Positions 3,918 to 40,398 of a DNA stretch of 40,398 nucleotides are shown here, in pieces (positions within the stretch are counted from its first letter, which is position 1; each line of letters starts with the position of its first letter). Both the position numbers and the translations under genes were made by a program. Below the pieces are notes generated by a model. That model had not been told where the DNA came from, did no database searches, and saw only the letters and a list, made by a program, of their open reading frames with translations. The DNA comes from a bacterium (GTDB lineage: Bacteria > Patescibacteriota > Minisyncoccia > Phycocordibacterales > Phycocordibacteraceae): positions 1-40,398 of the forward strand of contig DAICZA010000003.1 in assembly GCA_027311385.1 (NCBI GenBank), written 5' to 3'.

Positions 3918-5786
3918 TCATTCAGCCGACGATTGGACCATTTTCATAAAGACTTCTTCGGGGATATTCACCTTCCCCCGCCCGCGCTCCAAGAGCTTCT
4001 TCTTGCCGCGCTTCTGCTTGTCCAGGAGCTTGTTCTTGCGCGAGACGTCGCCGCCGTAGAGATAGCCGGTGACATCCTTGCGCATCGCCGAGAGCGTTCG
4101 TGAAGAGATGATGCGGCCCAAGGCGCGCGCCTGGATCTTCGTCACAAAGAGCTGTTTGGGCAGGAGGCCGTGAAGTTTCTCCACCATCTTCTCCGCCTCT
4201 TCCTCCACCCGCCGGCGCGCGACCACGCGCGCAAACGCGGCCACCGGCTCGTCGGCCACCAGCACGTCAAGCCGCACGACATCCGCTTCCCGTTCGGCGA
4301 GGATTTCATACGACAGCGAGGCGTAGCCGGATGAGACGTTCTTCAATTTATCAAAGAATCCGCGCATGAGTTCGCGCAGCGGCATCTCAATGGTCATCTC
4401 AATGCGACCGTCGCCGAACGTCTCGGTCGCGAGTGTCTGCGCCTCGTGGTCGTAGAGCATCTGGACGAGCGCGTTCACCGCCTCGGGCGGCGTGATGATG
4501 ATGACCCGCGCCCACGGCTCCTCAATCTTCAGGATGTCGCCGTATTCGGGGAACTTCGCCGGCGTATAAATGGTCTCGCGGACGCCGCTCGTCTTCGTGA
4601 CCACGTAGGAGATAGTCGGGATAGTGACGATGAGCGTAAGGTTGAATTCGCGGCGCAGGCGTTCGGTAACTATTTCCAAATGGAGGAGCCCGAGGAAGCC
4701 GCAGCGGAACCCGCGCCCGAGCACACCGGAAGACTCTTCCTCAAACGAGAGCGAGGAATCGGAGAGCCGCAGGCGCTCAAGCGATTTGCGCAGGACCGGC
4801 AAGTCATCTTGGCTCTCCGGATACACCGACGCCCACACGACCGGCCGCACCCGCTCGTAGCCCGGGAGCGCGGGCAAGGAGCCCTTCGCCGCACCGATGG
4901 TGTCGCCGACCGCGACGACGCCCGGCTCCTTGATGCCGGTGACAATGTAGCCGATTTCGCCGGCGGAAAGTGAATCGGCGGGCGTCTCGCCTGGCGTGAA
5001 GATGCCGGTCTCAAGCGCGATGAACTCTTTCCCCGCCGCGCGAAACGCAAGCGGCTGGCCTTTCTTGAACGTGCCGTCAAACACGCGCAGATACACGGCG
5101 ACGCCGCGGTGCGTGGAATACGAGAAATCAAAAATAAGTCCGCGCGGTTCCTCGCCGGCGGACGGCGCGGAACCGCGCGGCGACGGAATGCGCGTCACGA
5201 TGGCTTCCAGCAGTTCGGCAACGCCCGCACCCGTCTTCCCCGACACTGCAAGCACCTCCTCGGGCGAGGCGTGCACGAGCTTGGCGAGCTCCGCCTTCAC
5301 CTCGTCCACGCGCGCGGCGGGAGAATCTATCTTGGAGAGCACCGGGATGACGACGCACCCCTGCGCCTCGGCCATTGCGAGCGTTGTCAGGGTTTGCGCC
5401 TGGACGCCATGGGTGGCATCCACAAGGAGAAGCACTCCCTCCACCGCATGGAGCGCGCGCGAGACTTCGTACGAGAAATCAATGTGCCCCGGAGTATCAA
5501 TCAAGTTGAGTACGTAGTCGCCGTACTGCATCCGTACGGGCTGCATTTTGATGGTAATGCCGCGCTCGCGTTCCAGGTCCATACGGTCAAGCACCTGGTC
5601 GCGCATCAATCGCTCGGGAATGGCGCCGGTGCGCTCCAAGAGGCGGTCGGCCAGCGTTGATTTGCCATGGTCTACATGGGCAATGATAGAGAAATTGCGA
5701 AAGTGTTCTTGGTTCACCCCGTTAGAGACCCGATTCGCAGACGAATCGGCAGACATTCCAGATGTCTTGTCTCTAACGGGGTTCAT
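3918..5786 (-). CDS. lepA: Elongation factor 4 (LepA)
   Basis: [32 protein letters not shown], and a LepA-type C-terminal domain. ATG 5786 overlaps the murJ stop (ATGA). An alternative GTG at 5717 would remove the 23-aa extension encoded by a palindromic element. Confidence 0.95.
5716..5782. repeat. Palindromic element, copy 1 (14-bp perfect terminal inverted repeats ACCCCGTTAGAGAC)
   Basis: ACCCCGTTAGAGAC (5716-5729) pairs with GTCTCTAACGGGGT (5769-5782). Two internal hairpins are present: CCGATTC-gcagac-GAATCGG and AGACAT-tccag-ATGTCT. The element lies between the murJ stop and the conserved lepA core. Confidence 0.8.
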
Positions 5787-7510
5787 GGCTGGAGCGGCTC
5801 GTCGCCGGAGGGAGGAAGTATGGCGGAGCGGCCGGTATGCGTCCGGATGAGTTTCCCGAGCGCGCTGGTCACGATGCCGAATTCCTCGTTCTCAAGGAAA
5901 TAGAGCGCGAGCGCCGAGGCGGCAAGGCCGACAATGCCTGCGACAAGACCCTGCGTGAGGACGGACATAAGCGTCGTCAGGGGCGCGATGCCGCCCTCAA
6001 GCGTCAGCACCGCGTACGCAGCCGCGCCGCCCGCAACGGCGGCGATGGAGCCGTCCAGAGCCGGACGCAGGAGCGTCCGGCTGAGTCCGGGAGCGATATT
6101 CCGAAGCGCGATGAGCGACAGAAACACGAGGAAGAATTGTCCGAGGATGTTCGCGAGCGCGAGAAGCAGAATGCCCGTCCCGGGCACGTCGGACACTTTC
6201 AGAAACGCCGCGAGCGAAGCGGGCATGCTGCTATTCGGCATCGCGAGGAACACGAACGCGAGCACGACCGTGAGTGCGCCGCCGGCAATCTGGTACGCAA
6301 GCGGCCGCCAGGACTGGCGCGCCGCGTAGAGCGCGCGCGAGAACAGTAATTCCAGCGCGTCCACGACCAAGCCGACGACGGCGATAGCAAGGAGCGCCGC
6401 CGTGAGGCGCGTCGCGTCCCAATTAAACGCGCCGGTCCCGAGCACGACTCGGACGATATGCGCACGCAAGACGACGACAAGCCCGAGCGCCACGATAGAC
6501 CAGAGGATGATGTGCCGCGCGCTCGTGGAAAGAATTTTCATAAATTCATCATGCTTCTTCAAGGAGAGCGCTTCGGAGAGCGCCGGGAACGCCGCAACGG
6601 CATAGGAGGAACCGATGATGGCGAGCGGAACCGCCTCCAGATTGCCGGCGAAGGTGAACACCGATACCTCGCCCGTGCCGAGCCGGGACGCCATCGCCGT
6701 CAGAAACAGCATCGTGAAGGAGTTCACGCCGAGCGCGAGCGAGCGCGGCACGGAATTCTGCACGACCGGCCTCATAAGCGCAAAGGATGGGAGACGGAAG
6801 CGCGGCAGTACGCCGGCGCCGATGACGACCGGTATATTGACGGCGAAGTATCCGACCGCGCCGATGACCACGCCGATGCCGATGCCCGGCAAGCCCCACA
6901 GGGGATACAAAACGACCGTGCCGAAGATGATGCCGAGATTGTAGAGAACCGGCGAGAGCGCGAAGAGGACGAACCGCCGGTGCACCTGCGTGACGCTCGC
7001 AAAGACGCCGGAGAGGCCGAGCAAGATGGGCTGGACGAGCAGAATGCGCGCAAGGAGAACAAACTGCGGCTGGTACGCCGAGGTAACGAAATCCGGATAG
7101 AGAAACGCCAAGAACTGCGGCATAAAGATGCCGATAATGACGCAAATGACGCCGCCGACGCTAAGGAGGAACGTTGCCGATTCGGAGAGGAGCCGTCGCG
7201 TCGCGTCGCGATCCTGCCCGGTAATAAGCGGAATGATAACGTACGCACTCACCAAGGACGACACCAGTGCGAAGACCAGATCCGGCATACGAAACGCCGC
7301 ATAGTAGAGGTCCAGCACCTGCCCCGCGCCGAAGGTGTGTGCAAAGGTGCGGTCGCGGAGAAGTGCCAAAGCCTGCGACGCGAGCGTGAGCGCGGCGAGC
7401 AGATACGCGGCCTGATGCAGGCCGCGTATCGGCGCGGCAATACGCGAATACGCGGCTTTCCTAAGCCCGCGTATTGGTGCCGCGATGCGCTCATACGTCT
7501 CCCGAACCAT
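5783..7510 (-). CDS. murJ: Lipid II flippase MurJ/MviN
   Basis: Polytopic membrane protein with [30 protein letters not shown], typical of the MurJ N-terminus. The ORF opens at 7546. I prefer ATG 7510 because TACTAT (7517-7522) is 6 nt upstream and a terminator hairpin with T-tract ends at about 7549. Confidence 0.85.
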
Positions 7511-7555
7511 TGCCTCATAGTACCCTTTTTCCGCCGCGTTCTCCATAGGAAAAAC

Positions 7556-7588
7556 GGAAAAGGGGCGCCCGACTGGACGCCCCTTTCC
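7556..7588 (-). terminator. Rho-independent terminator after the O-antigen-ligase-like gene
   Basis: GGAAAAGGGGCG...CGCCCCTTTCC stem. On the minus strand it is followed by TTTTT (plus-strand A-run 7550-7554). Confidence 0.65.
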
Positions 7589-7606
7589 TAAAAATGCTTC
7601 TGACGA

Positions 7607-10018
7607 TTACTGAGCCGGTGCGGGCGCGGCCGCCGGCGTCGTCGGTGCCGGGCTGGCCGATGCGGGCGTTACCGAGAGGAGATTCGCCGGGAACGGATTC
7701 TTCCCCGCTTGGAGCTCGGCAAGCTGGGCGGCGACCGCCTTTGCGTTATCAGCCGACATATCCGAGATCGCCTGCACCTGTGTGATGGCATCCGGGAAAT
7801 TCTTCTGCTTCGCGTACACCGCCGCGAGGAAGTAGCGCGCGTTTGCGAATTGCGGATTCGCAGTGACCGCCGCGGAGAGCGCCGAGACGGCGTTCGCGAG
7901 GTCGTTCTGCGCCGCATACAGGATGCCGACCTGGAAGAGGATGTTCGGGTCGTTCGGCGTGAAGTACGCCGCGGCGAGTGCCGAGGTAAGCGCGTCTTTT
8001 ACGTTGCCGTCCTGCACCTCAAGCTGGGAGAGGAGGAAGATGGCGGCCGTATAGTCCTGCTTGAGCGCGATGGCGGCCTTCAGGTCGGCCTCGGCGGACT
8101 TGTTGTCCTTGTTCGCGATATCAAGCTGGGCGAGGACGTACGGTATCTGCGGATTCGTCGGATTGAGTTTCTGGGCACTGTCGTAGGCGGACTTCGCGCT
8201 GTCATAGGCGCCCTTCACGCCAAGCGGCACCGCCTGGGCGTAGAGATTACCGAGCGCAAGCCAGTTCTGGTAGTCGGACGGCATGAGGCGCGTCGCAGTC
8301 AGGGCCGCGTTGATACCAGTGGAGAGTGCCGTCTGGAACGCCTGCTGGGCGGCGGACGTTGGCATCGTTGACGATGCGACTATCTGGCTCAAACGCCCGG
8401 TGGCGACACCCGCTTCAATCTGATACGCGGCGGCGGTCGGTGCGAACGCGACGGAATTTTGCGCCGCCTGGTCGGCCTGGTCCAGGTTCCCCGCGGAGAA
8501 TGCCGCGCCGGCACTGGCGAGTTCCGCCGTGGCAATGGCGCGCCCGACGAGCGTATACGCGGCGACCACCGATGCGAGCAGAAGGATAGTCAGCGAGAAT
8601 ACGATGACGAAGCCGAGCCGCGGGCTCCGCGAGAAGATGACGCCCCATTGCTGGCTCCGCGCGGCGAAGCGCGTCGTGGACACGAAGAGACCGGCGAAGA
8701 CGAACGCGAGCACGAGGATGACCGCATTCGGCAGGTCAAAGACCGCGGTCGCGAAGAGGTAGAGCGCCGACACGAACGAGAGTATCGCGACGTAGCGGAC
8801 AAACGCGTCCTCCGGCGCGCGCAAGATAAGCATGCGCAAGCCGCACACGATGAACAGGAGGAGGAACGCAACCCACGCGAGCGCCCCCGCGAGACCGGTC
8901 GTCACGAGCGAGGTCGGGATGAAGCCGATGCCGGACGAGAAATCAATATTCCAGAACACGGTTGAGTTGAGCGATGCGTCGCGGTATTTGAGCCATTCTA
9001 CGCCGAACGTGCCCGGGCCGGATCCGAAGATCGGCGTGGTGGCGTAGGACTGGTGCGCAACCGAGAACGTTGACTGCCAGGAGGGACGGACATTCAGCAC
9101 ATTGACGTGGAGCGCATTCGCCAAAGCGCCGCCGAGCGTTCCGCCGATGAGGAAGAAGAGCGACACGGCAAGCACGAGGAGCGGCAGAACGAGCGAATGG
9201 CTGCCCTCGTCCGCCTCAGGCGTCGCGTCGCCAAGCATCGCCGCTTCATCTAGGTCGCCGTCGGCAGACTTGGGACCGCGCTGCATCACCGCCTCAACAA
9301 AGAGCCCGAGCGAGACGAGCGCAAGGAGCGTCCAGACGAGAGAGGAGTTGGCGATAGCGAGCAGGAACAGCGCCGCAATGCCGCTCGCGGCGAGCAGTTG
9401 GTACGCGCGGCGCGGCAATTGAAGGAACCGGAACGTGATGAGGACGCCGACGACGCCGAGCCCCATCAGGAACGCGAGGTCGTTAAACGAACCGACGAGC
9501 GAGAACGCGGGGGAAATGGTATTCGGCGCAAACTGCCCGATGATGACCACCAACACTTCAAGAAGCGCAGCGACGCCGAACACAAACGCACTGGTGCGCA
9601 GGAAAGAGCGGTAGTGTTCGGAACGGCGGAGGATGAATGCGGCGAGCGTACCGAGAACGGCCGCGACGAGCATAAAGCCGAACGTATCCGGTTCAAGCGC
9701 CGTTCCCCAAAACGTAGTGCCGAATGCCACGCCCGAGAACGATGCCGAGAGCGCGTAGGCGATAGCCGGCAGCCACAATGCGCCGACGAGCATAAACGGC
9801 GGGAGGATAATGTTCCCGCGCGCGAGCCGCGCGAGGATGTAGAGCGCAAGCGTGATGAGCGCGCCTGCAGCAAGCAGGAAGGTTTTCGTCGTGGAAAGTG
9901 GAATCGCCGAAGACGGGATGAAAAAGAACACGCCCACGATGAGTGTCACAAGAAGCGCCCACACACTTATGGTCTCAAGCGAACGTCGGCGCGAAGCCGT
10001 TGGTTGATACGGAGGCAT
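7607..10018 (-). CDS. Large polytopic membrane protein: O-antigen ligase/Wzy-like region plus C-terminal TPR repeats
   Basis: 803 aa with more than 10 predicted TM helices. The C-terminal ~250 aa are degenerate 34-aa TPR-like repeats (e.g. NWLALGNLYAQ, NILFQVGILYAAQNDLANAVSALSAAV, ARYFLAAVYAKQKNFPDAI). Confidence 0.65.
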   Translation of the reverse strand: MPPYQPTASRRRSLETISVWALLVTLIVGVFFFIPSSAIPLSTTKTFLLAAGALITLALYILARLARGNIILPPFMLVGALWLPAIAYALSASFSGVAFGTTFWGTALEPDTFGFMLVAAVLGTLAAFILRRSEHYRSFLRTSAFVFGVAALLEVLVVIIGQFAPNTISPAFSLVGSFNDLAFLMGLGVVGVLITFRFLQLPRRAYQLLAASGIAALFLLAIANSSLVWTLLALVSLGLFVEAVMQRGPKSADGDLDEAAMLGDATPEADEGSHSLVLPLLVLAVSLFFLIGGTLGGALANALHVNVLNVRPSWQSTFSVAHQSYATTPIFGSGPGTFGVEWLKYRDASLNSTVFWNIDFSSGIGFIPTSLVTTGLAGALAWVAFLLLFIVCGLRMLILRAPEDAFVRYVAILSFVSALYLFATAVFDLPNAVILVLAFVFAGLFVSTTRFAARSQQWGVIFSRSPRLGFVIVFSLTILLLASVVAAYTLVGRAIATAELASAGAAFSAGNLDQADQAAQNSVAFAPTAAAYQIEAGVATGRLSQIVASSTMPTSAAQQAFQTALSTGINAALTATRLMPSDYQNWLALGNLYAQAVPLGVKGAYDSAKSAYDSAQKLNPTNPQIPYVLAQLDIANKDNKSAEADLKAAIALKQDYTAAIFLLSQLEVQDGNVKDALTSALAAAYFTPNDPNILFQVGILYAAQNDLANAVSALSAAVTANPQFANARYFLAAVYAKQKNFPDAITQVQAISDMSADNAKAVAAQLAELQAGKNPFPANLLSVTPASASPAPTTPAAAPAPAQ

Positions 10019-10107
10019 GGTGAATGAAATTGATACTATTTATGGTAATGCCGTTCAGTATACTCCGCCGGTCTCCGGATAAGACGCTTATCCACACATT
10101 ACAACAC

Positions 10108-10177
10108 GAGGTGTCACCTTACGTTTATCACATGTTTCTAGTTGTCCTATTGACTTCGTGAGGTGACACCTTACACT
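10108..10177 (+). promoter_or_regulatory. Two 15-nt copies of a palindromic box overlapping a candidate promoter
   Basis: GAGGTGTCACCTTAC (10108-10122) and GAGGTGACACCTTAC (10160-10174). Each core AGGTGnCACCT is a palindrome. The second sits in the spacer of TTGACT (10150-10155), 16 nt, TACACT (10172-10177), 8 nt before ATG 10186. Confidence 0.5.
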
Positions 10178-10185
10178 TGCAGGAT

Positions 10186-10857
10186 ATGGCAAGGACAAAT
10201 GGGCCGTTTACTGCCGGTGAGTGGTACCACTGCTACAACCGCAGTATTGAGAAGCGCATTTCATTTGAGGATTCTCAGGATTACCAACGGTTTCTGGAGC
10301 TTCTCTATTTGGCAAATGACGAGTCGCCTCTCCGGCGCGGCGACATAGGCGCCCGCACCTTTAAGGAGGTTCTGGGTATCCCCCGCGGCAAGGCGCTTGT
10401 CGCCATCGGCGCGTTCTGCCTGATGCCGAACCGCTTTGACTTGGTGTTGCGCGAGGTCTCTGAGGGCGGCATCACCACATTTATGCGGAAGCTCGGGACA
10501 GCCTATACCCTCTACTTCAACGCACGGCACAAGCGGGTGGGCAACCTGTTCCTTAAACCCTTCCAGTCCAGCCACGTGCCTATGGGCCGTTCATTCCAGC
10601 ACATAGTCAGCTACATACACTCTAATCCGGCAATGCTCTATGAACCAAAATGGGAACGCAACCACGTCGTGGACCCTCAGTTCTTGGAAGAACGCTTGAT
10701 GGCATATCCGTATTCAAGCCTTGCCGCCCATACCGGCGCGCCGGCACCAACCCGCGCCATTCTGGACGCACAGGTGCTCTCTGCGGCGCGGGTGCTTCCC
10801 CTGCAGAAGATGTTGCAGGAGGCGCGGCAGTATGCCGCTGATTTCGAGACCCCGTAA
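10186..10857 (+). CDS. IS200/RayT-like Y1 transposase homologue with degenerate HUH motif
   Basis: WYHCYNRSIEKRISFEDSQDYQRFLELL, FCLMPNRFDLVL, YTLYFNARHKRVGNLFLKPFQS and SYIHSNPAM follow the COG1943/REP-associated transposase pattern. The HxH positions read R-F-D. The ORF opens at TTG 10177. Confidence 0.7.
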   Translation: MARTNGPFTAGEWYHCYNRSIEKRISFEDSQDYQRFLELLYLANDESPLRRGDIGARTFKEVLGIPRGKALVAIGAFCLMPNRFDLVLREVSEGGITTFMRKLGTAYTLYFNARHKRVGNLFLKPFQSSHVPMGRSFQHIVSYIHSNPAMLYEPKWERNHVVDPQFLEERLMAYPYSSLAAHTGAPAPTRAILDAQVLSAARVLPLQKMLQEARQYAADFETP

Positions 10858-10890
10858 GGGGGACGCTACGCGCTTTTATATTAAGTGTGG

Positions 10891-10896
10891 TATAAT
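10891..10896 (+). promoter_or_regulatory. -10 box (TATAAT, preceded by TGg) for rnpB
   Basis: gtgTGgTATAAT lies 6-7 nt before the first base of the P1 helix of RNase P RNA. Confidence 0.6.
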
Positions 10897-10900
10897 GAGC

Positions 10901-11245
10901 GCGGACCGGGCTGGGCGATCGCTCCGCAGGAAACTGCGGGGAGGAAAGTCCGAACATGCTCCCGCCGCAAGGCGGGAAATAGGTAGCGGGTAACGCCCGT
11001 CGTCCGCGAGGATAGAGGTGACCACAGAAACGTCAACGCCGAAAGGCCGCGAATTCCCTCGTGGAATAGGTCCGCCGCGAGGCGGAAATGCAACGAACAA
11101 ATCCTTACCCGCATGCAAGGCCGTGCCCGACTTCGGTCGGGAGTGCCGCTCGAGCCTGACGGCAACGTCGGGCCCAGATAAATGACCGCCTCGGCCCTCT
11201 TCATGAAGGTCCAGACAGAATTCGGCTTATCGGCCCGGTCCAACT
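10901..11245 (+). ncRNA. rnpB: RNase P RNA, bacterial type A
   Basis: Universal elements GGAGGAAAGTCCGAAC, ACAGAAA, AGATAAATGACCGCC and ACAGAATTCGGCTTATCGG are present. P1 pairing is GGACCGGGC (10903-10911) with GCCCGGTCC (11233-11241). Confidence 0.95.
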
Positions 11246-11249
11246 TAAT

Positions 11250-11281
11250 GCGAAATCCCGCGCTCCTGCGCGGGATTTCGC
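11250..11281. terminator. Bidirectional 14-bp hairpin between rnpB and the RNR gene
   Basis: GCGAAATCCCGCGC-tcct-GCGCGGGATTTCGC, between convergent rnpB (+) and nrdJ (-). Confidence 0.7.
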
Positions 11282-11294
11282 ATTTCCGGAATCA

Positions 11295-13676
11295 CTACAC
11301 TATCTCGCAGGTGCCGCCGGCGCACGCCAATTCCCTTTTCATGTCGCTCTCGTCCTGCCGTTCGTACGCGATGAGCTGGGAGTAATCCACCTTCGGGAAG
11401 CGCGCGAGGCGCTCCTCGTACTCCTCTTTCGTAATGGCTTCGTAGGGCGCGAGACGATACACATGATTGGAACGCGGGAGGAACGAGAGTCCACCGATGA
11501 TGTCCCAGTTTTTCTGAATCCAGTCCACGACGCCGATCCACTCATCCTCGCCCACTGAAACGGTCGCTGACGGGTTGTGATGCGTATAGTTGAGCTTCAC
11601 CATCTTCCAATACTCCAGCTGGTCAAGCGCCGTAAGGTCGTCCTTGAAACGCGCCTCCTTGGAGTGGTCGGGCGCCTTGACCGGGAATTCAAACACGAAC
11701 GTATTCGCCTCTTCCATAGACTGCCCTACCTCCGGGTAATACGGCACGCCCTGAGCGCGGAGCATCTTGAAGAGCGAGTCTGTTGCGCTGATGCGCACGC
11801 GGCGGATGTAGTACGGCGCGTGACGCGGGTGGATGCCGGAGGCGCAGTTAAATGTCTGCGAGACGGTGCCCGAGGGCTTCACCGCCGTGACCGACATAGA
11901 GCGTTCAATGCCGAATCGCTTCGCGTACGCCGCGTTTGTCTTGTCGGCCATATCGCGCATTTTGCGCATCACCTCGGCCCGGCGCACGACCGGAGAGTCC
12001 CACTGCCCCGTGATAGACACGCCGAGAAGCCGCTCTTTCTTATTGTGGTCAGTCCAGTCCTTGGAAATGTACTGGAAATTCGTAAGTGTGGATTGGTACG
12101 TGCCGATGAGAGCCGCAAGGCGCGCCTTCCGGAGGAGCGAAGCCTCGGTGTCGTGTGCGCGCGCGATGACTTCCGAGAGATTGCAGAACTGCTTGGACTG
12201 CAGGATGATTTCGGCGCACGGATTCGTGCCGACAGGACCGTGCGTCACGCCGTCCTCGCCGATGAACCCGATTGACTTGAAATAATCCACGCGACGTTTC
12301 GGCATCGTCTTTGCAAGCGAACCGCGGTTAAAGATGCCTCGCTCACCGCTCCCGCTCTTCATAAGCGCGACCCACTCGTCCATCAGCTCGGCGTTGGTCG
12401 GCTGGGTCTCATACACTGCTGAGTTATTGGCGACGGCGCGATGCGGGTCGGTCATATAGAACTGGCCCTTCTTAGCGTCGCGCATTTCCACGTCGTCCAG
12501 GTCGGAGAGCGATATCATCGCGGTGCGGCGCACGCCGCCGGCGACCACGCACTCGCCGATCTTGCAGATGACGTCGTGCGCATCAATGGCGCGCAGACGG
12601 CGCCCCTGGCGGCGCAGGACGCGCTCGCGTGCAAAGGCAAGCAGGGACTTGAGCGGTTCGGGGCCGCTCGCCTTCCCGCCCATCGTCTTCAGTCGCGCGC
12701 CTGCGGGGCGAATCTGCGAGAAATCAAACGTAATATCCTTGCCGGCGTACCACGTCGTGAGTCCGAGCGTGAGTGCATCGCACCAGCCCTCCTTGGAATC
12801 GGCAATGACGTGCGTCTCCAGTTTCTTCCCCGACTGCTTCATAATTTGCGGAAGCTGTTCCACATTCTGGCTCTCTACCGCAAAACCGACGCCGGCACCC
12901 TGCATAGACAGGTACATAATTTCAGCGAAGTCTTCCAGCTTGGTCGGCGCGGTAAACGTGCAGTTGTACGCGCACGTGTTACAGCGGCGCGCCGCCTCGC
13001 CCGAGAACTGCATCAAGCGCATTGAAGGCATCACTTCCTGCTTCAAGATACCCGTACGCACCTCGGAGTATTCTTTCTCGGTCAGTTTGTTGCCGAGGTT
13101 CTCGCGCATAAAACTGATGTAGCGGTCCACGGTCTCAATCCACGTCTCGCGGCGGCCCTCCTCCGGAATCCATTTCGCGTACGTGCGCAGGTAGACGAAC
13201 TCGCCGAGCGCGTTGCCGTCAAAATATTTCTTACTCTCCTCGGCGAGCTTCTTCACATGCGCCGGTATCTCCACGTGCGCGGCGCGCAGCTGCGCGCGCT
13301 TGTCGCGGTAAAGGATGTACGCCTTCGCCGTCTTCACGTAATCATTGAGAATGAGGTATTTCTCCACCGAATCCTGCATACCCTCAACCGTCGGGAGGAA
13401 ACTCTTGTACTTTTTAGAGAATCGCCCGAGCTCGCCGGAGACTTGGTGCGCAACGAGGACCGCATCTTCCTGGCCGCCTTCCCCCGCTTCCGCCATCGCC
13501 TTCTGCACGGCGGTGACAATCTTGTCAAAATCAAACGCGACGAGCCGACCGTCGCGTTTCTCCACTTGCGGAATCATTTCGCGGTATCGCAACGTCTCCT
13601 TTGAGACCGCCTGCTTTGCAACGGCAGTCGCGGTCGCGGTCTTCGTACGGGCGGAAACTTTTGCGGTTTTGGACAT
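11295..13676 (-). CDS. nrdJ: Class II (adenosylcobalamin-dependent) ribonucleotide reductase
   Basis: N-terminal ATP-cone (VEKRDGRLVAFDFDKIVTAV), GTNPCAEIILQSKQFCNLSEV active-site loop, and C-terminal redox tail CAGGTCEIV. Confidence 0.9.
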   Translation of the reverse strand: MSKTAKVSARTKTATATAVAKQAVSKETLRYREMIPQVEKRDGRLVAFDFDKIVTAVQKAMAEAGEGGQEDAVLVAHQVSGELGRFSKKYKSFLPTVEGMQDSVEKYLILNDYVKTAKAYILYRDKRAQLRAAHVEIPAHVKKLAEESKKYFDGNALGEFVYLRTYAKWIPEEGRRETWIETVDRYISFMRENLGNKLTEKEYSEVRTGILKQEVMPSMRLMQFSGEAARRCNTCAYNCTFTAPTKLEDFAEIMYLSMQGAGVGFAVESQNVEQLPQIMKQSGKKLETHVIADSKEGWCDALTLGLTTWYAGKDITFDFSQIRPAGARLKTMGGKASGPEPLKSLLAFARERVLRRQGRRLRAIDAHDVICKIGECVVAGGVRRTAMISLSDLDDVEMRDAKKGQFYMTDPHRAVANNSAVYETQPTNAELMDEWVALMKSGSGERGIFNRGSLAKTMPKRRVDYFKSIGFIGEDGVTHGPVGTNPCAEIILQSKQFCNLSEVIARAHDTEASLLRKARLAALIGTYQSTLTNFQYISKDWTDHNKKERLLGVSITGQWDSPVVRRAEVMRKMRDMADKTNAAYAKRFGIERSMSVTAVKPSGTVSQTFNCASGIHPRHAPYYIRRVRISATDSLFKMLRAQGVPYYPEVGQSMEEANTFVFEFPVKAPDHSKEARFKDDLTALDQLEYWKMVKLNYTHHNPSATVSVGEDEWIGVVDWIQKNWDIIGGLSFLPRSNHVYRLAPYEAITKEEYEERLARFPKVDYSQLIAYERQDESDMKRELACAGGTCEIV

Positions 13677-36577: not shown

Positions 36578-37222
36578 TTACGGGTACTGCGTGCCGTCGC
36601 CCGTGATGGGTATCGTGTCACCCAAATATTTCGGCTTCAGGTGGAAGACCACGTCAAAGAGCGCTTTCTCGTCGGAAAATACTTCGCGGAGATAATTGCC
36701 GGGGAGGATATGACCGGAGTCGGCGTTCACGCCGTACGCCTGTATGCCGAGAGCCCGCGCGATGAAGAGTGCGCGCGGCAGGTGGAATGATTGCGTCGCA
36801 ATCAGCATAGAGGACACGCCGAAAATGGCGCGGGCGCGGTACATACTGCTATAGGTATCAAAGCCGGCATGGTCCAGGAAAATGTCTTTGTCCGGAATGC
36901 CTTTCGCGAGCAAGTAGAGCCGGACGGGATTCACCTCGTTATGGCTCACGGTGCTGTTATCGCCGGAGACGAGTATCTTCGCCACCTTCCCTGCCTGGTA
37001 TAGGGCGATGGCTACGTTCACGCGGTCGGTGAAGATGGGTGCGGGCTTGCCGTCTGCGAGAATCGCCGCGCCGGGAATCAGCGCGACCTCGGCGCTCGGC
37101 GCCGCGTCTATGCTCTGGTAGGTGTACGCGTACGTAGACAGACGGATATACGCATTGGTGACGAGGATGAGCGCGGGGAGCGCCACGCCGCCGAACATAC
37201 CGAGGGATATCAGGCGCTTCAT
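36578..37222 (-). CDS. sanA: SanA/DUF218 family membrane-anchored protein
   Basis: N-terminal TM helix, then ALIPGAAILADGKPAPIFTDRVNVAIALYQAGKVAKILVSGDN and DHAGFDTYSSMYRA. TATACT (37229-37234) is 6 nt upstream of ATG 37222. The ORF opens at TTG 37240. Confidence 0.8.
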   Translation of the reverse strand: MKRLISLGMFGGVALPALILVTNAYIRLSTYAYTYQSIDAAPSAEVALIPGAAILADGKPAPIFTDRVNVAIALYQAGKVAKILVSGDNSTVSHNEVNPVRLYLLAKGIPDKDIFLDHAGFDTYSSMYRARAIFGVSSMLIATQSFHLPRALFIARALGIQAYGVNADSGHILPGNYLREVFSDEKALFDVVFHLKPKYLGDTIPITGDGTQYP

Positions 37223-37296
37223 TCGTGCAGTATACGTCAATTCATAATCCCGCTTCTGTTCTCCCTCCGCCCCTCCCGCGGGTGTACTATAAACCT

Positions 37297-37776
37297 ATGA
37301 ATACAACTCTGAGGAACGTGCTCTGGCTCGCCGTCGGCCTTATCGTCGCCGGTGCGCTCATCGTGTGGCTCACGCCGCGCGGCGCCGTCGCGCCCACCGT
37401 GCCGCCGCTCGCCGCCGACCTGTACCCGCTCTACAGCGCGGACTGGAACGCGCCACACCCGGTCTCCTTGGATATCCCGCCCGCGCCGCTCTCCGGCACC
37501 GGCATTGAAGCCGTCGTCGCCACAAGCACGATGAATCCCGGCGCCGCCTTCAGTCCGTTTGACAAGTACTACGCGGACAAACTCGGCGCGCTCGGCTGGC
37601 GGGTAGACAACAGCCTGGCCGCGGGAGGCCCCGGACGCGGCCAGGTCGTCTACCGCAAGGGCGCCGGCTTCATCGCGGTCAACGTCTGGACCGACTTCCA
37701 CACCGTCTCCTCCACGAGCCCGATGCAGTGCCCCTGCGACGTCACCATCAAACTCTTCTCCACCACGGTGCCGTAG
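37297..37776 (+). CDS. Hypothetical membrane-anchored or secreted protein
   Basis: MNTTLRNVLWLAVGLIVAGALIVWL signal/anchor. TACTAT (37285-37290) is 6 nt upstream of the ATG. A strong terminator follows. Confidence 0.6.
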   Translation: MNTTLRNVLWLAVGLIVAGALIVWLTPRGAVAPTVPPLAADLYPLYSADWNAPHPVSLDIPPAPLSGTGIEAVVATSTMNPGAAFSPFDKYYADKLGALGWRVDNSLAAGGPGRGQVVYRKGAGFIAVNVWTDFHTVSSTSPMQCPCDVTIKLFSTTVP

Positions 37777-37807
37777 CGCCGCGCTAGGAAGCGCGGCGCC
37801 TTCTTTC
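37776..37807 (+). terminator. Rho-independent terminator; last high-GC feature before the right-hand island
   Basis: GCGCCGCGC-taggaa-GCGCGGCGC followed by CTTCTTT. Confidence 0.8.
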
Positions 37808-37822
37808 CCCGAGCATACGGAC

Positions 37823-37850
37823 TTGACAAAGCTTATATTCCGTGTATTAT
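37823..37850 (+). promoter_or_regulatory. Near-consensus promoter TTGACA-16nt-TATTAT
   Basis: -35 at 37823-37828 and -10 at 37845-37850, preceded by TG. It would give a leader of about 135 nt before ATG 37992. Confidence 0.6.
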
Positions 37851-37991
37851 GAGTTGCGGATAGGTGATCTGTACGGGCTATCAGGATTACACGTCTAGCA
37901 CCCAACGCATCGTGGTAACGGCCTTTGCCCCTTCTGAAAAGAAGTAAGCGGTCGTCTCCCTGTCTAATTCATTTTAGACAAGGAGAAAGCA

Positions 37992-38378
37992 ATGTTCACT
38001 TCGATATTCAACTGGTTGAAAACACTTGGGAAACCAGAAGCAACCGAGCAGGAGATTCAAGATTACATTGCGAGATTGGAGAGAGCTGTTGAAGAGCTCA
38101 CAATCGAACTTGATTATCGAGAATACCTTGCGAAGCAAGAAGCAGAGAGAGAAGCTTTTGAACGTGAAGACCGGGAAAGAGAACGAGAAAACCTTGAGTA
38201 CTGGCCTGTATGTAAAGAAGAGATTGATGAAGAAGATCTCGCCAGAGAAGAGAAGGAGCGCAGGGATCGTGAAGAGGAGGAAAGGCAGCAGCATTATCTC
38301 AGCCATTGTCCTCATTGCGGTTCGCGAATTCGTCTCGGCAGATGTTCCGCCTGTGACGACGCTTTTGGTAGAAATTGA
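37992..38378 (+). CDS. Acidic coiled-coil protein with C-terminal CxxC...CxxC zinc ribbon
   Basis: An AAGGAGA SD lies 5 nt upstream. An E/R-rich helical middle (EAEREAFEREDRERERENLE...EEKERRDREEEERQ) is followed by CPHCGSRIRLGRCSAC. GC is lower than in the core genome. Confidence 0.65.
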   Translation: MFTSIFNWLKTLGKPEATEQEIQDYIARLERAVEELTIELDYREYLAKQEAEREAFEREDRERERENLEYWPVCKEEIDEEDLAREEKERRDREEEERQQHYLSHCPHCGSRIRLGRCSACDDAFGRN

Positions 38379-38386
38379 GTAAACTG

Positions 38387-38427
38387 ACCCCGCCTTTCGG
38401 AAACGACTGGTGGGGTTTCTTATTTGG
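38387..38427 (+). terminator. Rho-independent terminator of the zinc-ribbon gene
   Basis: ACCCCGCC...GGTGGGGT stem (one G:U pair) followed by the T-rich TTCTTATTT. Confidence 0.65.
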
Positions 38428-38469
38428 AATTCGCCTTTTGTGGATAGACCCATCCTTTCGTCCCCACCC

Positions 38470-38610
38470 AATCGCCGCGGAGTACCGCGGCGATTCCCTT
38501 GTCCCGCCAGGCCGGCCATCACGGGACCTTCATCCCGTTAGAGGCAGGTCTTTTAAAAGACCGTCGGCTCTAATGGGAAAACCTACCGGGATTTAGGATT
38601 TTCCGAGCTA
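38470..38610. repeat. Cluster of hairpins in the convergent intergenic region, including a degenerate copy of the CCCGTTAGAG element
   Basis: AATCGCCGCGG-agta-CCGCGGCGATT (38470-38495). ACGGGA-ccttca-TCCCGT (38521-38538). CCCGTTAGAG (38534-38543) versus CTCTAATGGG (38568-38577), enclosing the perfect palindrome GGTCTTTTAAAAGACC. GGAAAA...TTTTCC (about 38576-38603). Confidence 0.6.
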
Positions 38611-38664
38611 TTTAGGTAATCCCCAACCTCATTGAATTTATAGCTTTATTTGATATTCTTAGCC

Positions 38665-39663
38665 TTAAGGCCTCCCAGGGTTACCTGGTGGGGTCCCCGA
38701 AGGGACAGAAGGACTGCGGTATTCGACCAAGGCCTTTGTAAATTCGGAGACTCTGTCACGTGCAATGGTGGATAGTATTGTTCTAGAAATCTCTTCGGGC
38801 CCGCCCTTCTTATGAAGAGAATTCATCAATGAGTTTGCTCGATTGATGCGCGACTCGACACGTCGTTTTTTAGCTTCTGAAGCTATCGGGAATGATCGAC
38901 CATATGTACTATTGAAATGTGCCCAACCAAATAAATCCGCGACCTCTAGCCCAAAACTTAAACCTTTTTTATTTTGAAAAGTTAAGCTATGAATACGTTT
39001 CAAACAAAATTTCGCCCACATCTGATACCTTGGTGTATGAGCAAAAGTTGATTTGTGACTTGCAGATATAAATGCCGCTAGCACTGCATCATCTTCTTGT
39101 CTTCGCGATTCCGCCATCACTTCTCCATATGCATCCTTAGTCTCTAGAAAGTGACCGAATTCGAGAATGAGTTTGCGAGCAAGTGCTTCATATAAGAAAT
39201 CGTTAAGGCCTTCCCTCTTTATAAAATCCATCACCAACCGGTCAGATACATTACGTCTTCGAGCGATACGAGTGATTCGTTCCCTATACCAGCTTTTGTC
39301 GATTCGATAAATAAAACAATACATATCAGCCCCTTCAATCAAACCTGTAAGGCGTTTAAAGAACGTGTCAATCCGCGGGTACGGGATTCTTCTGTGTCTA
39401 CGCGTTCCATCTCGATTCTTGAGTAGTCCGCCATCAACGGTGTACATCTTCTCTCGTTCGCCTTCAAATAAATCGAAAGCATGGATATTTTCAGTGGTCG
39501 GAATACTAGATTTCTCCTTGAGTGAAATCATGTAGCTGGAGAGTGCAGAATGTAAATCTTTATCAATTATAAGACCCGAGAGCAGGAAATCATCATGGTC
39601 ATCAGACAACTTTGACTTACCTGATTCGTCAATAAACAGAATGTAATTCTGTTGCTTTTGCAT
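38665..39663 (-). CDS. DUF3800 family protein
   Basis: The N-terminal NYILFIDESGKS motif and overall length fit DUF3800 as I remember it. The ATG is 4 nt after the stop of the upstream helicase-peptidase gene. GC is about 40%. Confidence 0.7.
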   Translation of the reverse strand: MQKQQNYILFIDESGKSKLSDDHDDFLLSGLIIDKDLHSALSSYMISLKEKSSIPTTENIHAFDLFEGEREKMYTVDGGLLKNRDGTRRHRRIPYPRIDTFFKRLTGLIEGADMYCFIYRIDKSWYRERITRIARRRNVSDRLVMDFIKREGLNDFLYEALARKLILEFGHFLETKDAYGEVMAESRRQEDDAVLAAFISASHKSTFAHTPRYQMWAKFCLKRIHSLTFQNKKGLSFGLEVADLFGWAHFNSTYGRSFPIASEAKKRRVESRINRANSLMNSLHKKGGPEEISRTILSTIARDRVSEFTKALVEYRSPSVPSGTPPGNPGRP

Positions 39664-39667
39664 GCAT

Positions 39668-40398
39668 TTATTGTATCAAACCGCTCGGCTTGATAACTTC
39701 TTGAACAATTCCCTGCACACTGTCACTCTCGCCGGGAGTAATCGGCATATGCTTTTTATTTGTACTCCTAGGAATTAGCAGACGAATGCCGTCTTTTCGT
39801 GGACCATATTCTTTAATGGTGACGTTTTCACCACCAAGAAGGGCTATGACCCGGTCACCCGTATCAGCTTTTTCTTGCAGACGGCATAGTACGAGATCAT
39901 CATCATTTATGCCCGCGAGATTCATCGAGTCACCCTCAGCCCTGAGAATGAAATATCTGAATCCAGGTTTTATTTTTGACTTCTCCACTAAAATATAGTC
40001 TTCAATATTCTGTTCTCCTACTAATGGATTACCACACGGAGCCGAGCCCACCAGCGGCACACGGATCATGTCTATAGTAATTGGCGACAAAACAGGTGTA
40101 ACGTATTTCTGATAACTTTCTCTTGTCTCAATTCTACTTTTGAAAAACTTCTCTGTTTCTTTGTCTACAAAATACACATAGCATCCCTTCATTCCGCGAG
40201 TAAGAAGGACACGATAGGTATTTTTAAGGAGGTCGACAAGTTTTTCTCCAGAACGCTTCACGACACTGTCTGCGGATTTCTCCCTTAATGCAATCCAGGT
40301 TTGATTCTCGAAGTTGTAAACAAGATCAGGACCGATGATGACCCCCACGTAATCAAACTCGAAGCCTTGAATCGTATAGATGCTCCCTATTTGATTCA
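39668..40398 (-). CDS. DUF2075/Schlafen-type SF1 helicase C-terminus fused to a LexA/UmuD-like S24 peptidase (5'-truncated by the window edge)
   Basis: The frame stays open to the window end (the M in the track is an internal GTG). IYTIQGFEFDYVGVIIGPDL and YRVLLTRGMKGCYVYF are helicase motifs of DUF2075 type. Next come IRVPLVGSAPCGNPLVGEQNIE (LexA-like cleavage region), GDSM (Ser nucleophile) and VTIKEY (Lys). Confidence 0.75.
   Translation of the reverse strand, partial: NQIGSIYTIQGFEFDYVGVIIGPDLVYNFENQTWIALREKSADSVVKRSGEKLVDLLKNTYRVLLTRGMKGCYVYFVDKETEKFFKSRIETRESYQKYVTPVLSPITIDMIRVPLVGSAPCGNPLVGEQNIEDYILVEKSKIKPGFRYFILRAEGDSMNLAGINDDDLVLCRLQEKADTGDRVIALLGGENVTIKEYGPRKDGIRLLIPRSTNKKHMPITPGESDSVQGIVQEVIKPSGLIQ

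Follow-up and report, generated by a model that had tools for sequence, protein, structure and literature searches.

At the end of a 40,398-nucleotide (nt) stretch of DNA (the window, which is the entire contig DAICZA010000003.1 of assembly GCA_027311385.1), a gene that fuses a DUF2075-type helicase to a LexA/UmuD-like S24 autopeptidase domain runs off the sequence, and a gene of the DUF3800 family follows it. Overall, the region is best explained, with a probability that we put at roughly 55%, as an acquired islet encoding a MazG-nuclease-helicase similar to the phage defense proteins Nhi and AbiO, equipped with an S24 switch and accompanied by the DUF3800 protein as an independent accessory. 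The low-GC (guanine-plus-cytosine) stretch at the window end forms the end of a ~4.8-kb islet, acquired by horizontal transfer, in a genome of the Parcubacteria, part of the candidate phyla radiation (CPR). Within the window, the helicase-S24 gene has the following features:

39668..40398, minus strand: helicase-S24 gene, last 242 codons plus stop, the C-terminal part of an 863-amino-acid (aa) protein
39710..40057, minus strand: LexA/UmuD-type S24 autopeptidase domain (Pfam, E = 1.5e-18)
40031-40036, minus strand: predicted scissile bond Cys121-Gly122, aligned to LexA Ala84-Gly85
39926-39928, minus strand: predicted nucleophile Ser157 in GDSM, aligned to LexA Ser119
39812-39814, minus strand: predicted general base Lys195 in VTIKEY, aligned to LexA Lys156

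An earlier note on this DNA, made from its letters alone, had read here a helicase C terminus continuing into a complete S24 domain and had asked for profile hidden Markov model searches, which uphold this reading and all three of its domain calls. On the minus strand, the frame has no interruption between 40396 and its stop codon (39668-39670), and TIQGFEFDYVGVIIG and YRVLLTRGMKG both lie within it. Residues 1-78 of the fragment (40163-40396), which hold helicase motifs V and VI, match profile positions 270-354 of 354 of the SLFN-g3_helicase/DUF2075 family (PF09848, E = 7.9e-25), and residues 114-229 match Peptidase_S24 (PF00717) with 67 bits against a cut-off of 23.3. The fragment is likewise matched by the NCBIfam models for lexA (E = 3.5e-19) and for a subunit of DNA polymerase V (Pol V; E = 1.3e-11).

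The same note had proposed recovering the sequence past 40398, and two sibling contigs supply it. Exact-sequence look-up of the DUF3800 protein led to a contig of 54 kb (L001; GCA_002255405.1, Parcubacteria group bacterium 21-58-10), to which the last 11.7 kb of the window are identical and on which the window ends at position 9266. There the helicase appears as two overlapping open reading frames (ORFs) in different frames, and DNA alignment with the two closest relatives places a 23-nt gap at that point. In the second sibling (L116; GCA_002255385.1, bacterium 37-58-5, 99.6% identical), the gene is intact and runs through ...GIPPASLWPNDPNGVNQIGSIY... into the S24 domain. Rebuilt by joining L001 7428-8497 to L116 1-1526, the 863-aa protein consists of a MazG-like part (PF12643, E = 5.6e-15, residues 39-115 on L001), a PD-(D/E)xK-like nuclease motif, a superfamily 1 (SF1) helicase (PF09848, E = 6.4e-59 for its N-terminal part on L001), and the S24 domain. 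It shows GGPGTGKS, LIADEAHR, TIQGFEFDYVGVI, and YRVLLTRGMKG, corresponding to Walker A and B and motifs V and VI. The nuclease motif, RLD...IIELKQW, comes from visual inspection of L001 and a relative (L121); its region gives a weak PDC-S41 match (E = 1.2e-6) and matches no Pfam nuclease family. The MazG-like part was missed by the earlier note because it lies outside the window.

The window end (40398) coincides with the 23-nt insertion or deletion between the sibling assemblies (L001 9265-9266; L116 ~768-790), which suggests strain heterogeneity or a local assembly problem. Because the window contig ends at this site, one sibling is gapped there, and the other is intact, we treat the frameshift as an assembly artefact or strain variant, not a fixed pseudogene; a pseudogene, as the overlapping ORFs of L001 were first read, is rejected in view of the intact copy in L116. 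Gene calls for helicase-S24 in relatives often give two ORFs or C-terminal pieces only, and the causes of the breaks differ: a -1 shift in an A run in L004 (~4663-4671), a G lost from a G run in L121 (~1765), a run of N in L120 (~4957-4966), and the 23-nt gap in L001. The break in L004 is also a perfect A_AAA_AAG slippery heptamer. With breaks at different places and from trivial causes, a programmed frameshift or a conserved natural split is rejected.

To place the protein among its relatives, we assembled 84 loci, of which 80 came from a scan of one genome per GTDB species with the helicase-S24 alignment and four (L001-L004) from exact look-ups. The sample was drawn with two peptide patterns of this helicase sub-family, so that its fractions describe the sample and not all DUF2075 proteins, and ORFs in the fetched loci were called mechanically. 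A MazG-like gene lies directly upstream of the helicase or is fused to it in 46 of the 84 loci and lies nearby in ~14 more, and the loci span Bacteroidota, Pseudomonadota, Actinomycetota, Bacillota, Omnitrophota, Elusimicrobia, archaea, and CPR bacteria. In the islet protein the MazG-like part is fused to the N terminus, while elsewhere it is a separate upstream gene. The S24 domain is present in 28 of the 84 loci. The unit conserved across phyla is the MazG-like protein with the DUF2075 helicase, and about one-third of the sampled helicases carry S24. An exhaustive profile search of 1.84 billion representatives yielded 532 proteins passing E ≤ 1e-30. Both profile halves are matched by about 30 of the top 150 (clusters at 50% identity, typically 680-830 aa), which puts the fusion in at least ~30 such clusters.

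The earlier note had also suspected a defense-like helicase, and the kinship found for its core is with single-protein nuclease-helicases of phage defense. The helicase core matches the PADLOC models for Nhi (E = 1e-12, model positions 179-331 of 470) and AbiO (E = 6.3e-13, positions 175-340 of 468), and an orthologue in another locus (L009) matches the Nhi model over positions 114-435 (E = 1.3e-15). Nhi (Staphylococcus epidermidis SERP2475), the Nhi-like proteins of Millman et al. (2022), and lactococcal AbiO share with the islet protein a DUF2075 SF1 helicase preceded in the same polypeptide by a nuclease, which in the islet protein is a putative one. Nhi and Nhi-like proteins are described as single-polypeptide nuclease-helicases that have spread horizontally and lie near other defenses (10.1101/776245, 10.1101/2022.05.11.491447). 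What is new relative to Nhi, Nhi-like, and AbiO is the MazG-like part and the S24 part: the former stands at the N terminus and the latter at the C terminus, neither is reported for Nhi, and Nhi has a different extra domain. The kind of N-terminal nuclease also varies between sub-families: the window type (L001, L121) has a PD-(D/E)xK-like one and the L009 type a GIY-YIG-like one. The helicase family, PF09848, is shared with human SLFN11, a group III Schlafen protein that is activated when its helicase domain binds single-stranded DNA (ssDNA) (PMC13056530), although the islet protein is without the Schlafen RNase domain; papers on bacterial Schlafen defense concern that RNase domain only, not this helicase.

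Genes around 26 S24-helicase loci include RhuM/PDC-S05 (4-6), PDC-S23 (4), HNH (3), HNH_2 (3), AbiEii (2), and CopG (2), together with a CAP12/Pycsar-type TIR protein in L005 and a faint Mrr_cat match in L121. This evidence for defense islands is qualitative, and no third conserved gene was found among the neighbors of these 26 loci.

The S24 domain carries, as far as an alignment can tell, every feature that self-cleavage would need. S24 autopeptidases are known as switches on repressors (LexA and phage cI) and on the Pol V subunit UmuD. A profile built from 23 homologues matches LexA structures (E = 1e-19) and UmuD (E = 1.5e-14), and the predicted Cys, Gly, Ser, and Lys are all invariant in the alignment of these homologues (A1). 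With LexA, UmuD, and lambda cI the domain shares the Ser-Lys dyad and a cleavage site, here Cys-Gly as in UmuD, in the linker before the core; the predicted site sits after helicase motif VI. Two S24 flavors exist, a CPR type (L002-L011) and a second type that includes the cultured Geomesophilobacter sediminis Red875 (L067 5456-7861) and Variovorax ginsengisoli (L079 5444-7927). GxSM is kept in 28 of 28 S24-carrying ORFs of both flavors, with an A-G or C-G site upstream. Whereas LexA, UmuD, and cI release a DNA-binding domain or a polymerase subunit, a cut at the predicted site would release a MazG-nuclease-helicase of ~742 aa, an enzyme without a helix-turn-helix, from an S24 core of ~121 aa. 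In the numbering of the full-length protein, the predicted site is Cys742-Gly743 and the dyad Ser778 and Lys816; the orthologues of Geomesophilobacter and Variovorax have Ala-Gly at this site.

The S24 module also appears to be portable between enzymes. A CPR-type S24 domain 79% identical to that of the window forms the C terminus of a BglII-like restriction endonuclease (P0029; L119 283-1329), and domains 70-74% identical to it stand on a 260-aa domain of unknown type in two further proteins, P0036 and P0044. The gene for P0044 (L117 5001-6173; L118 3224-4396) is divergent to a C5 DNA methylase and a GHKL ATPase. Tentatively, and as an idea that we would at present still bet against, LexA-type S24 autoproteolysis might be a portable sensor of RecA filaments with which bacteria have equipped DNA-cutting immune enzymes more than once: in many phyla the Nhi-like nuclease-helicases, and in CPR bacteria restriction endonucleases. 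Such a sensor would link the SOS signal directly to innate immunity without a transcription factor, either sparing the chromosome or arming the enzyme, with the downstream DUF3800 or HNH protein as a second effector in a CPR sub-clade.

The acquisition of the islet is evident from its composition, and two features define its border:

37776..37807, plus strand: intrinsic-terminator-like hairpin that ends the host gene at 37225-37776 and marks the border of the low-GC islet
37809..40398, no strand: part of the low-GC islet inside the window, beginning with the GC drop directly after the hairpin

In 400-nt windows, GC falls from 0.63-0.69 at 37000-37799 to 0.45 at 37800-38199 and to 0.41-0.43 from 38600 to the window end, in agreement with the drop after a terminator that had been noticed earlier. 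The terminator scan gives the hairpin a 10-bp stem with nine G-C pairs (37776-37799), followed by the C/T-rich tail CTTCTTTCCC. At 1-kb resolution the background of the window is 0.54-0.64 and its final 2.4 kb are 0.42-0.47. The suspicion of compositionally foreign DNA holds for the whole islet (L001 ~7075-11855), of which ~2.2 kb lie past the window end: its genes have a GC of 0.42-0.53 against 0.65-0.68 for the flanking host genes, which on L001 are housekeeping genes. In a comparison for foreign origin, the values are 0.42-0.45 against 0.60 in the host, and both main islet genes have relatives in genomes of ~0.42-0.44 GC. Positions 1-1000 of the window are likewise low in GC (0.469, with the same background of 0.54-0.64).

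At the islet borders no tRNA, no convincing flanking (att-like) repeats, and no integrase among the called genes were found, and an integrative element or integrated prophage is rejected. A tblastn search with the DUF3800 protein against 50,697 phage records gave no match, and the only plasmid matches to the helicase-S24 fragment are stand-alone LexA/UmuD genes or DUF2075 genes; a phage or plasmid origin is rejected on these grounds.

The second gene of the islet lies directly downstream:

38665..39663, minus strand: DUF3800 protein, 332 aa, ATG at 39663, 4 nt after the helicase stop; predicted RNase H-like nuclease

The family assignment of this protein, whose N terminus is NYILFIDESGKS, stands as first proposed, with 25.8 bits against a cut-off of 21 (PF12686, E = 1.9e-5; residues 8-251, profile positions 1-148 of 149). 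Invariant in an alignment of its homologues (A2) are D12/E13 (39625-39630), H61, E67, E185, D191, and E240/D243 (38935-38946). In the place of the C-terminal QxxD motif there is an invariant E240-x-x-D243 (LEVADL), with Glu for Gln, and a comparable departure is seen in the DUF3800 protein of retron type VII (PMC7736814). Searched against BFVD, an AlphaFold model (mean predicted local distance difference test [pLDDT] score, 89.9) is closest to a phage DUF3800 protein (E = 1.7e-10), and RNase H proteins come next with weak scores (E = 0.02-1). The fold search of PDB gave no match for the model at E ≤ 0.001, with weak NurA and RNase HI hits only, and searching for solved structures by sequence returned nothing significant. 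About half of the sub-family has a conserved Pro/Gly-rich tail, GTPPGNPGGP (window 38668-38700; A2 columns ~345-365), predicted to be disordered (pLDDT < 50).

The three domains had been taken together as a coupled helicase-S24 and DUF3800 system, and it is this part of the earlier interpretation that is not supported. Support was found for its domain calls, the foreign composition, the S24 features, a defense-like helicase (by the kinship with Nhi and AbiO), and the lack of a named system for the fusion. A DUF3800 homologue flanks none of the 27 other S24-carrying loci, phmmer with the DUF3800 protein of the window against all ORFs of L001-L084 finds only itself, and none of 31 DUF3800 loci has a helicase-S24 gene. 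Only in L098 and L099 do a MazG gene and a helicase gene without S24 lie ~1.1 kb upstream of DUF3800, with two genes between. The three-part combination of helicase, S24, and DUF3800 is not a recurring unit.

The 116 DUF3800 homologues come from CPR bacteria and DPANN archaea. In the 31 metagenome loci the gene is usually the last on its strand, often with overlapping stop and start codons, and the genes upstream of it are varied: type I hsdM or hsdS (L094-L097, L102), an Eco57I-like methylase with TaqI_C (L089), a methylase with T5orf172-ResIII (L103), an EcoRI methylase with GmrSD-HNH (L110), ResIII helicases (L085, L093), and an ABC ATPase (L088). Because of these varied restriction-modification (R-M) and helicase neighbors, and because the gene is lower in GC than several of its other hosts, DUF3800 is shown to be an independent mobile accessory of DNA-targeting defense operons, not the regular partner of helicase-S24, with which it is probably cotranscribed in this genome. 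Its position can be taken by another gene: in the closest relatives of the helicase, L002 (84%), L003 (81%), and L004, a 230-aa HNH protein is encoded directly downstream where DUF3800 would be (L002 1064-1762; L003 1261-1949; L004 5517-6203). The N-terminal domain of the HNH protein, YREMCDxExxQTLQRGMNFRxNPAYSVILMSQ, is conserved and without a Pfam match, and may be a reader of DNA modification; the L003 gene is split into two ORFs.

DUF3800 proteins have been called RNase H-like and linked to retron type VII, to Cas12a2/a3 and Cas13 loci, and to eleven RNA motifs (PMC7736814, PMC10910872, PMC13594972, 10.64898/2026.08.25.746378, PMC5737381). With those of retron type VII, the tetratricopeptide repeat (TPR)-DUF3800 proteins found with Cas12a2/a3, and Csx32 of the Cas13 CASK loci, the islet protein shares the Pfam family, the N-terminal D-E motif, varied defense neighbors, and, tentatively, a predicted RNase H-like fold. 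In contrast to these known accessories, it is accompanied here by neither a reverse transcriptase nor a Cas gene nor any known DUF3800 RNA motif and carries no TPR domain, and its sub-family (~300-340 aa, in CPR and DPANN) mostly follows R-M genes. In L102 (1210-8566) an orthologue is flanked by hsdM and hsdS within a type I R-M operon and overlaps the hsdM stop. By analogy, this would be the position that the PrrC anticodon nuclease occupies in the EcoprrI type Ic R-M operon. PrrC, in the Escherichia coli prr locus, is a latent nuclease guarded by the R-M enzyme; it belongs to a different protein family from DUF3800, and the likeness is one of analogy only. In two independent metagenome contigs, L108 (1974-3043) and L109 (5185-6254), the orthologue is split into ORFs of 134 and 222 aa.

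If the 863-aa protein works as Nhi and AbiO do, it would unwind and cut phage replication intermediates, while its MazG part might hydrolyze deoxynucleoside triphosphates, possibly modified ones. The S24 domain would dimerize the enzyme and serve as its switch, with RecA-ssDNA filaments stimulating self-cleavage at the Cys-Gly site of the linker and so separating the helicase-nuclease from the S24 core. The direction of such a switch is not given by the sequence; we would prefer switch-off, because restriction endonucleases, which have to be active ahead of any infection, carry a near-identical S24 module. RecA filaments would then signal the repair of unmodified or broken host DNA, and cleavage would remove the dimerization domain and disable the nuclease, a built-in restriction alleviation that would spare the host chromosome during SOS repair. 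In E. coli, restriction alleviation is known from type I R-M enzymes, which ClpXP shuts down after DNA damage. The logic proposed here matches this, with a DNA-cutting defense enzyme shut down by proteolysis when RecA-dependent repair yields unprotected host DNA, except that the protease would be part of the enzyme itself and RecA filaments would trigger it directly.

Several points weigh against this account. Autocleavage, RecA dependence, nuclease activity, and a role in phage defense are all properties that we infer; the PD-(D/E)xK call depends on a motif recognized by eye; the PADLOC matches to Nhi and AbiO are limited to the helicase core; and the L001 gene, frameshifted by its 23-nt gap, may be a dead copy in some cells. 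The defense context is moderate, not overwhelming, with the islet itself among housekeeping genes, and a MazG partner and UmuD-like domain would equally fit a role in DNA repair. A predicted nuclease also lies 3-17 nt downstream on the same strand in the closest loci (DUF3800 at 4 nt here; HNH at 15, 3, and 17 nt in L002, L003, and L004), so that a two-gene arrangement in the CPR sub-clade is possible. A two-component system, in which helicase-S24 senses infection or damage and controls an exchangeable downstream nuclease, DUF3800 here and HNH in the relatives, would account for this spacing and for the DUF3800 orthologues that directly adjoin other DNA-targeting genes, in many cases so closely that stop and start codons overlap. 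We nevertheless consider it unlikely: no downstream gene is conserved in L005-L011 or in any of the 16 non-CPR S24-helicases, DUF3800 is found with at least eight unrelated types of upstream gene, the helicase protein already has a nuclease-like motif of its own, and tight gene spacing is common in small CPR genomes. The opposite logic for the switch seems a somewhat better prospect, though still doubtful. In that case S24 would keep the nuclease-helicase inactive until RecA filaments on phage ssDNA or damaged DNA trigger an activating cleavage, as in the conversion of UmuD to UmuD', the textbook precedent for activation by RecA-stimulated cleavage. The conserved cleavage site and Ser/Lys dyad suit this logic, an inhibitory domain would be useful given that one Nhi homologue is toxic on expression (10.1101/776245), and Hachiman and AbpAB are reported to respond to DNA damage or to phage single-stranded DNA-binding protein. 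It sits less well with the restriction endonucleases that carry near-identical S24 domains and of which one has a methylase partner, since constant activity is expected of such enzymes.

Two further explanations do without immunity or without cleavage. The MazG-like part, helicase-nuclease, and S24 domain could form a RecA-controlled module of DNA damage tolerance or repair, with MazG cleaning the nucleotide pool and the helicase processing stalled forks; the S24 matches to UmuD and the NCBIfam Pol V subunit, the textbook status of MazG enzymes as house-cleaning enzymes, the spread of the MazG-helicase pair over many phyla, and the housekeeping genes flanking the islet all suit such a role. 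The patchy distribution and clear GC anomaly, the closeness to Nhi and AbiO among characterized helicases, the swapping of the N-terminal nuclease between PD-(D/E)xK-like and GIY-YIG-like types, and neighborhoods rich in RhuM, AbiE, HNH, TIR, and Mrr-like genes make it quite improbable. It is more improbable again that S24 does not cleave at all and only dimerizes the enzyme or docks it onto RecA filaments. The C-terminal domains of LexA and cI are dimerization domains and BglII-type enzymes are dimeric, as textbooks describe, and Nhi acts as a dimer (10.1101/776245). However, the Ser, Lys, and Cys/Ala-Gly site are invariant or nearly so over two divergent S24 flavors and many phyla, which would be hard to explain without selection for catalysis.

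The islet has further features, of which those near the terminator are as follows:

37823..37850, plus strand: sigma-70-like promoter match, TTGACA-16 nt-TATTAT (11/12), upstream of the small plus-strand ORF; a consensus match only
37992..38378, plus strand: small ORF, 128 aa, with AAGGAG 7 nt before its ATG, a strong ribosome-binding site
38379..38664, no strand: intergenic spacer of 286 nt between the convergent small ORF and DUF3800 gene, with several G+C-rich hairpins

Sigma-70-like matches in the region do not exceed in total the number expected from shuffled sequence. The small protein has a Glu/Arg-rich, probably helical middle and a C-terminal CxxC...CxxC zinc ribbon, with a weak DZR zinc-ribbon match (E = 0.006, under the cut-off), and the public gene call chose an overlapping 118-aa frame instead. 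No homologue occurs in any fetched locus, which rules it out as a conserved partner, and it may lie outside the helicase unit. The spacer has a GC of 0.50, above its neighbors; a hairpin at ~38386-38417, followed by UUUCUUAUUU, resembles a terminator of the small ORF, and a perfect 11-bp hairpin lies at ~38470-38495. The spacer also folds better than shuffled sequence, with z-scores of -4.55 (plus strand) and -2.93 (minus strand). No similar sequence is found beside DUF3800 orthologues, and Rfam at E ≤ 1 over L001 6000-13000 gave no match, the DUF3800-associated motifs included; a DUF3800-associated RNA is rejected on these two counts. Past the window, a DUF4406 gene (L001 7075-7452), nucleoside 2-deoxyribosyltransferase-like, shares 25 nt with the start of the MazG-helicase gene. 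It has a PHROG match (E = 2.6e-17) and an intermediate GC of 0.53, and with no homologue in any other MazG-helicase locus it is ruled out as a conserved partner. In a Saccharibacteria locus (L011), a direct duplication stands right after the helicase-S24 gene (7710-8649 and 10643-11582), with ORFs of 81 and 154 aa each present twice, ~2.9 kb apart.

The helicase-S24 fusion, which occurs in many bacteria, seems to be undescribed, in line with the earlier note's view that the three-domain combination is not known as a named system. PADLOC-DB 2.0 holds no model covering the fusion or the MazG-like and DUF2075 pair. In the full-text literature no paper turned up that describes the fusion or either of the two added parts, or that treats DUF2075 together with MazG or MazG together with Schlafen; queries on S24 in combination with DUF2075, on its autoproteolysis as a part of antiphage defense, and on its pairing with restriction endonucleases brought up unrelated papers only.

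The MazG-like protein and DUF2075 helicase are now defined as a conserved cross-phylum pair, and the DUF3800 sub-family of the window is shown to ride on R-M operons. If an intact S24 switch does operate at the C termini of these enzymes, members of the widespread Nhi-like nuclease-helicase family and restriction endonucleases in CPR bacteria, it would extend RecA-stimulated self-cleavage to the direct posttranslational control of immune nucleases. With orthologues in cultured Geomesophilobacter and Variovorax, the idea is testable at the bench, and it would offer a testable answer to the old problem of how restriction-type enzymes are kept off a cell's own DNA during recombinational repair.

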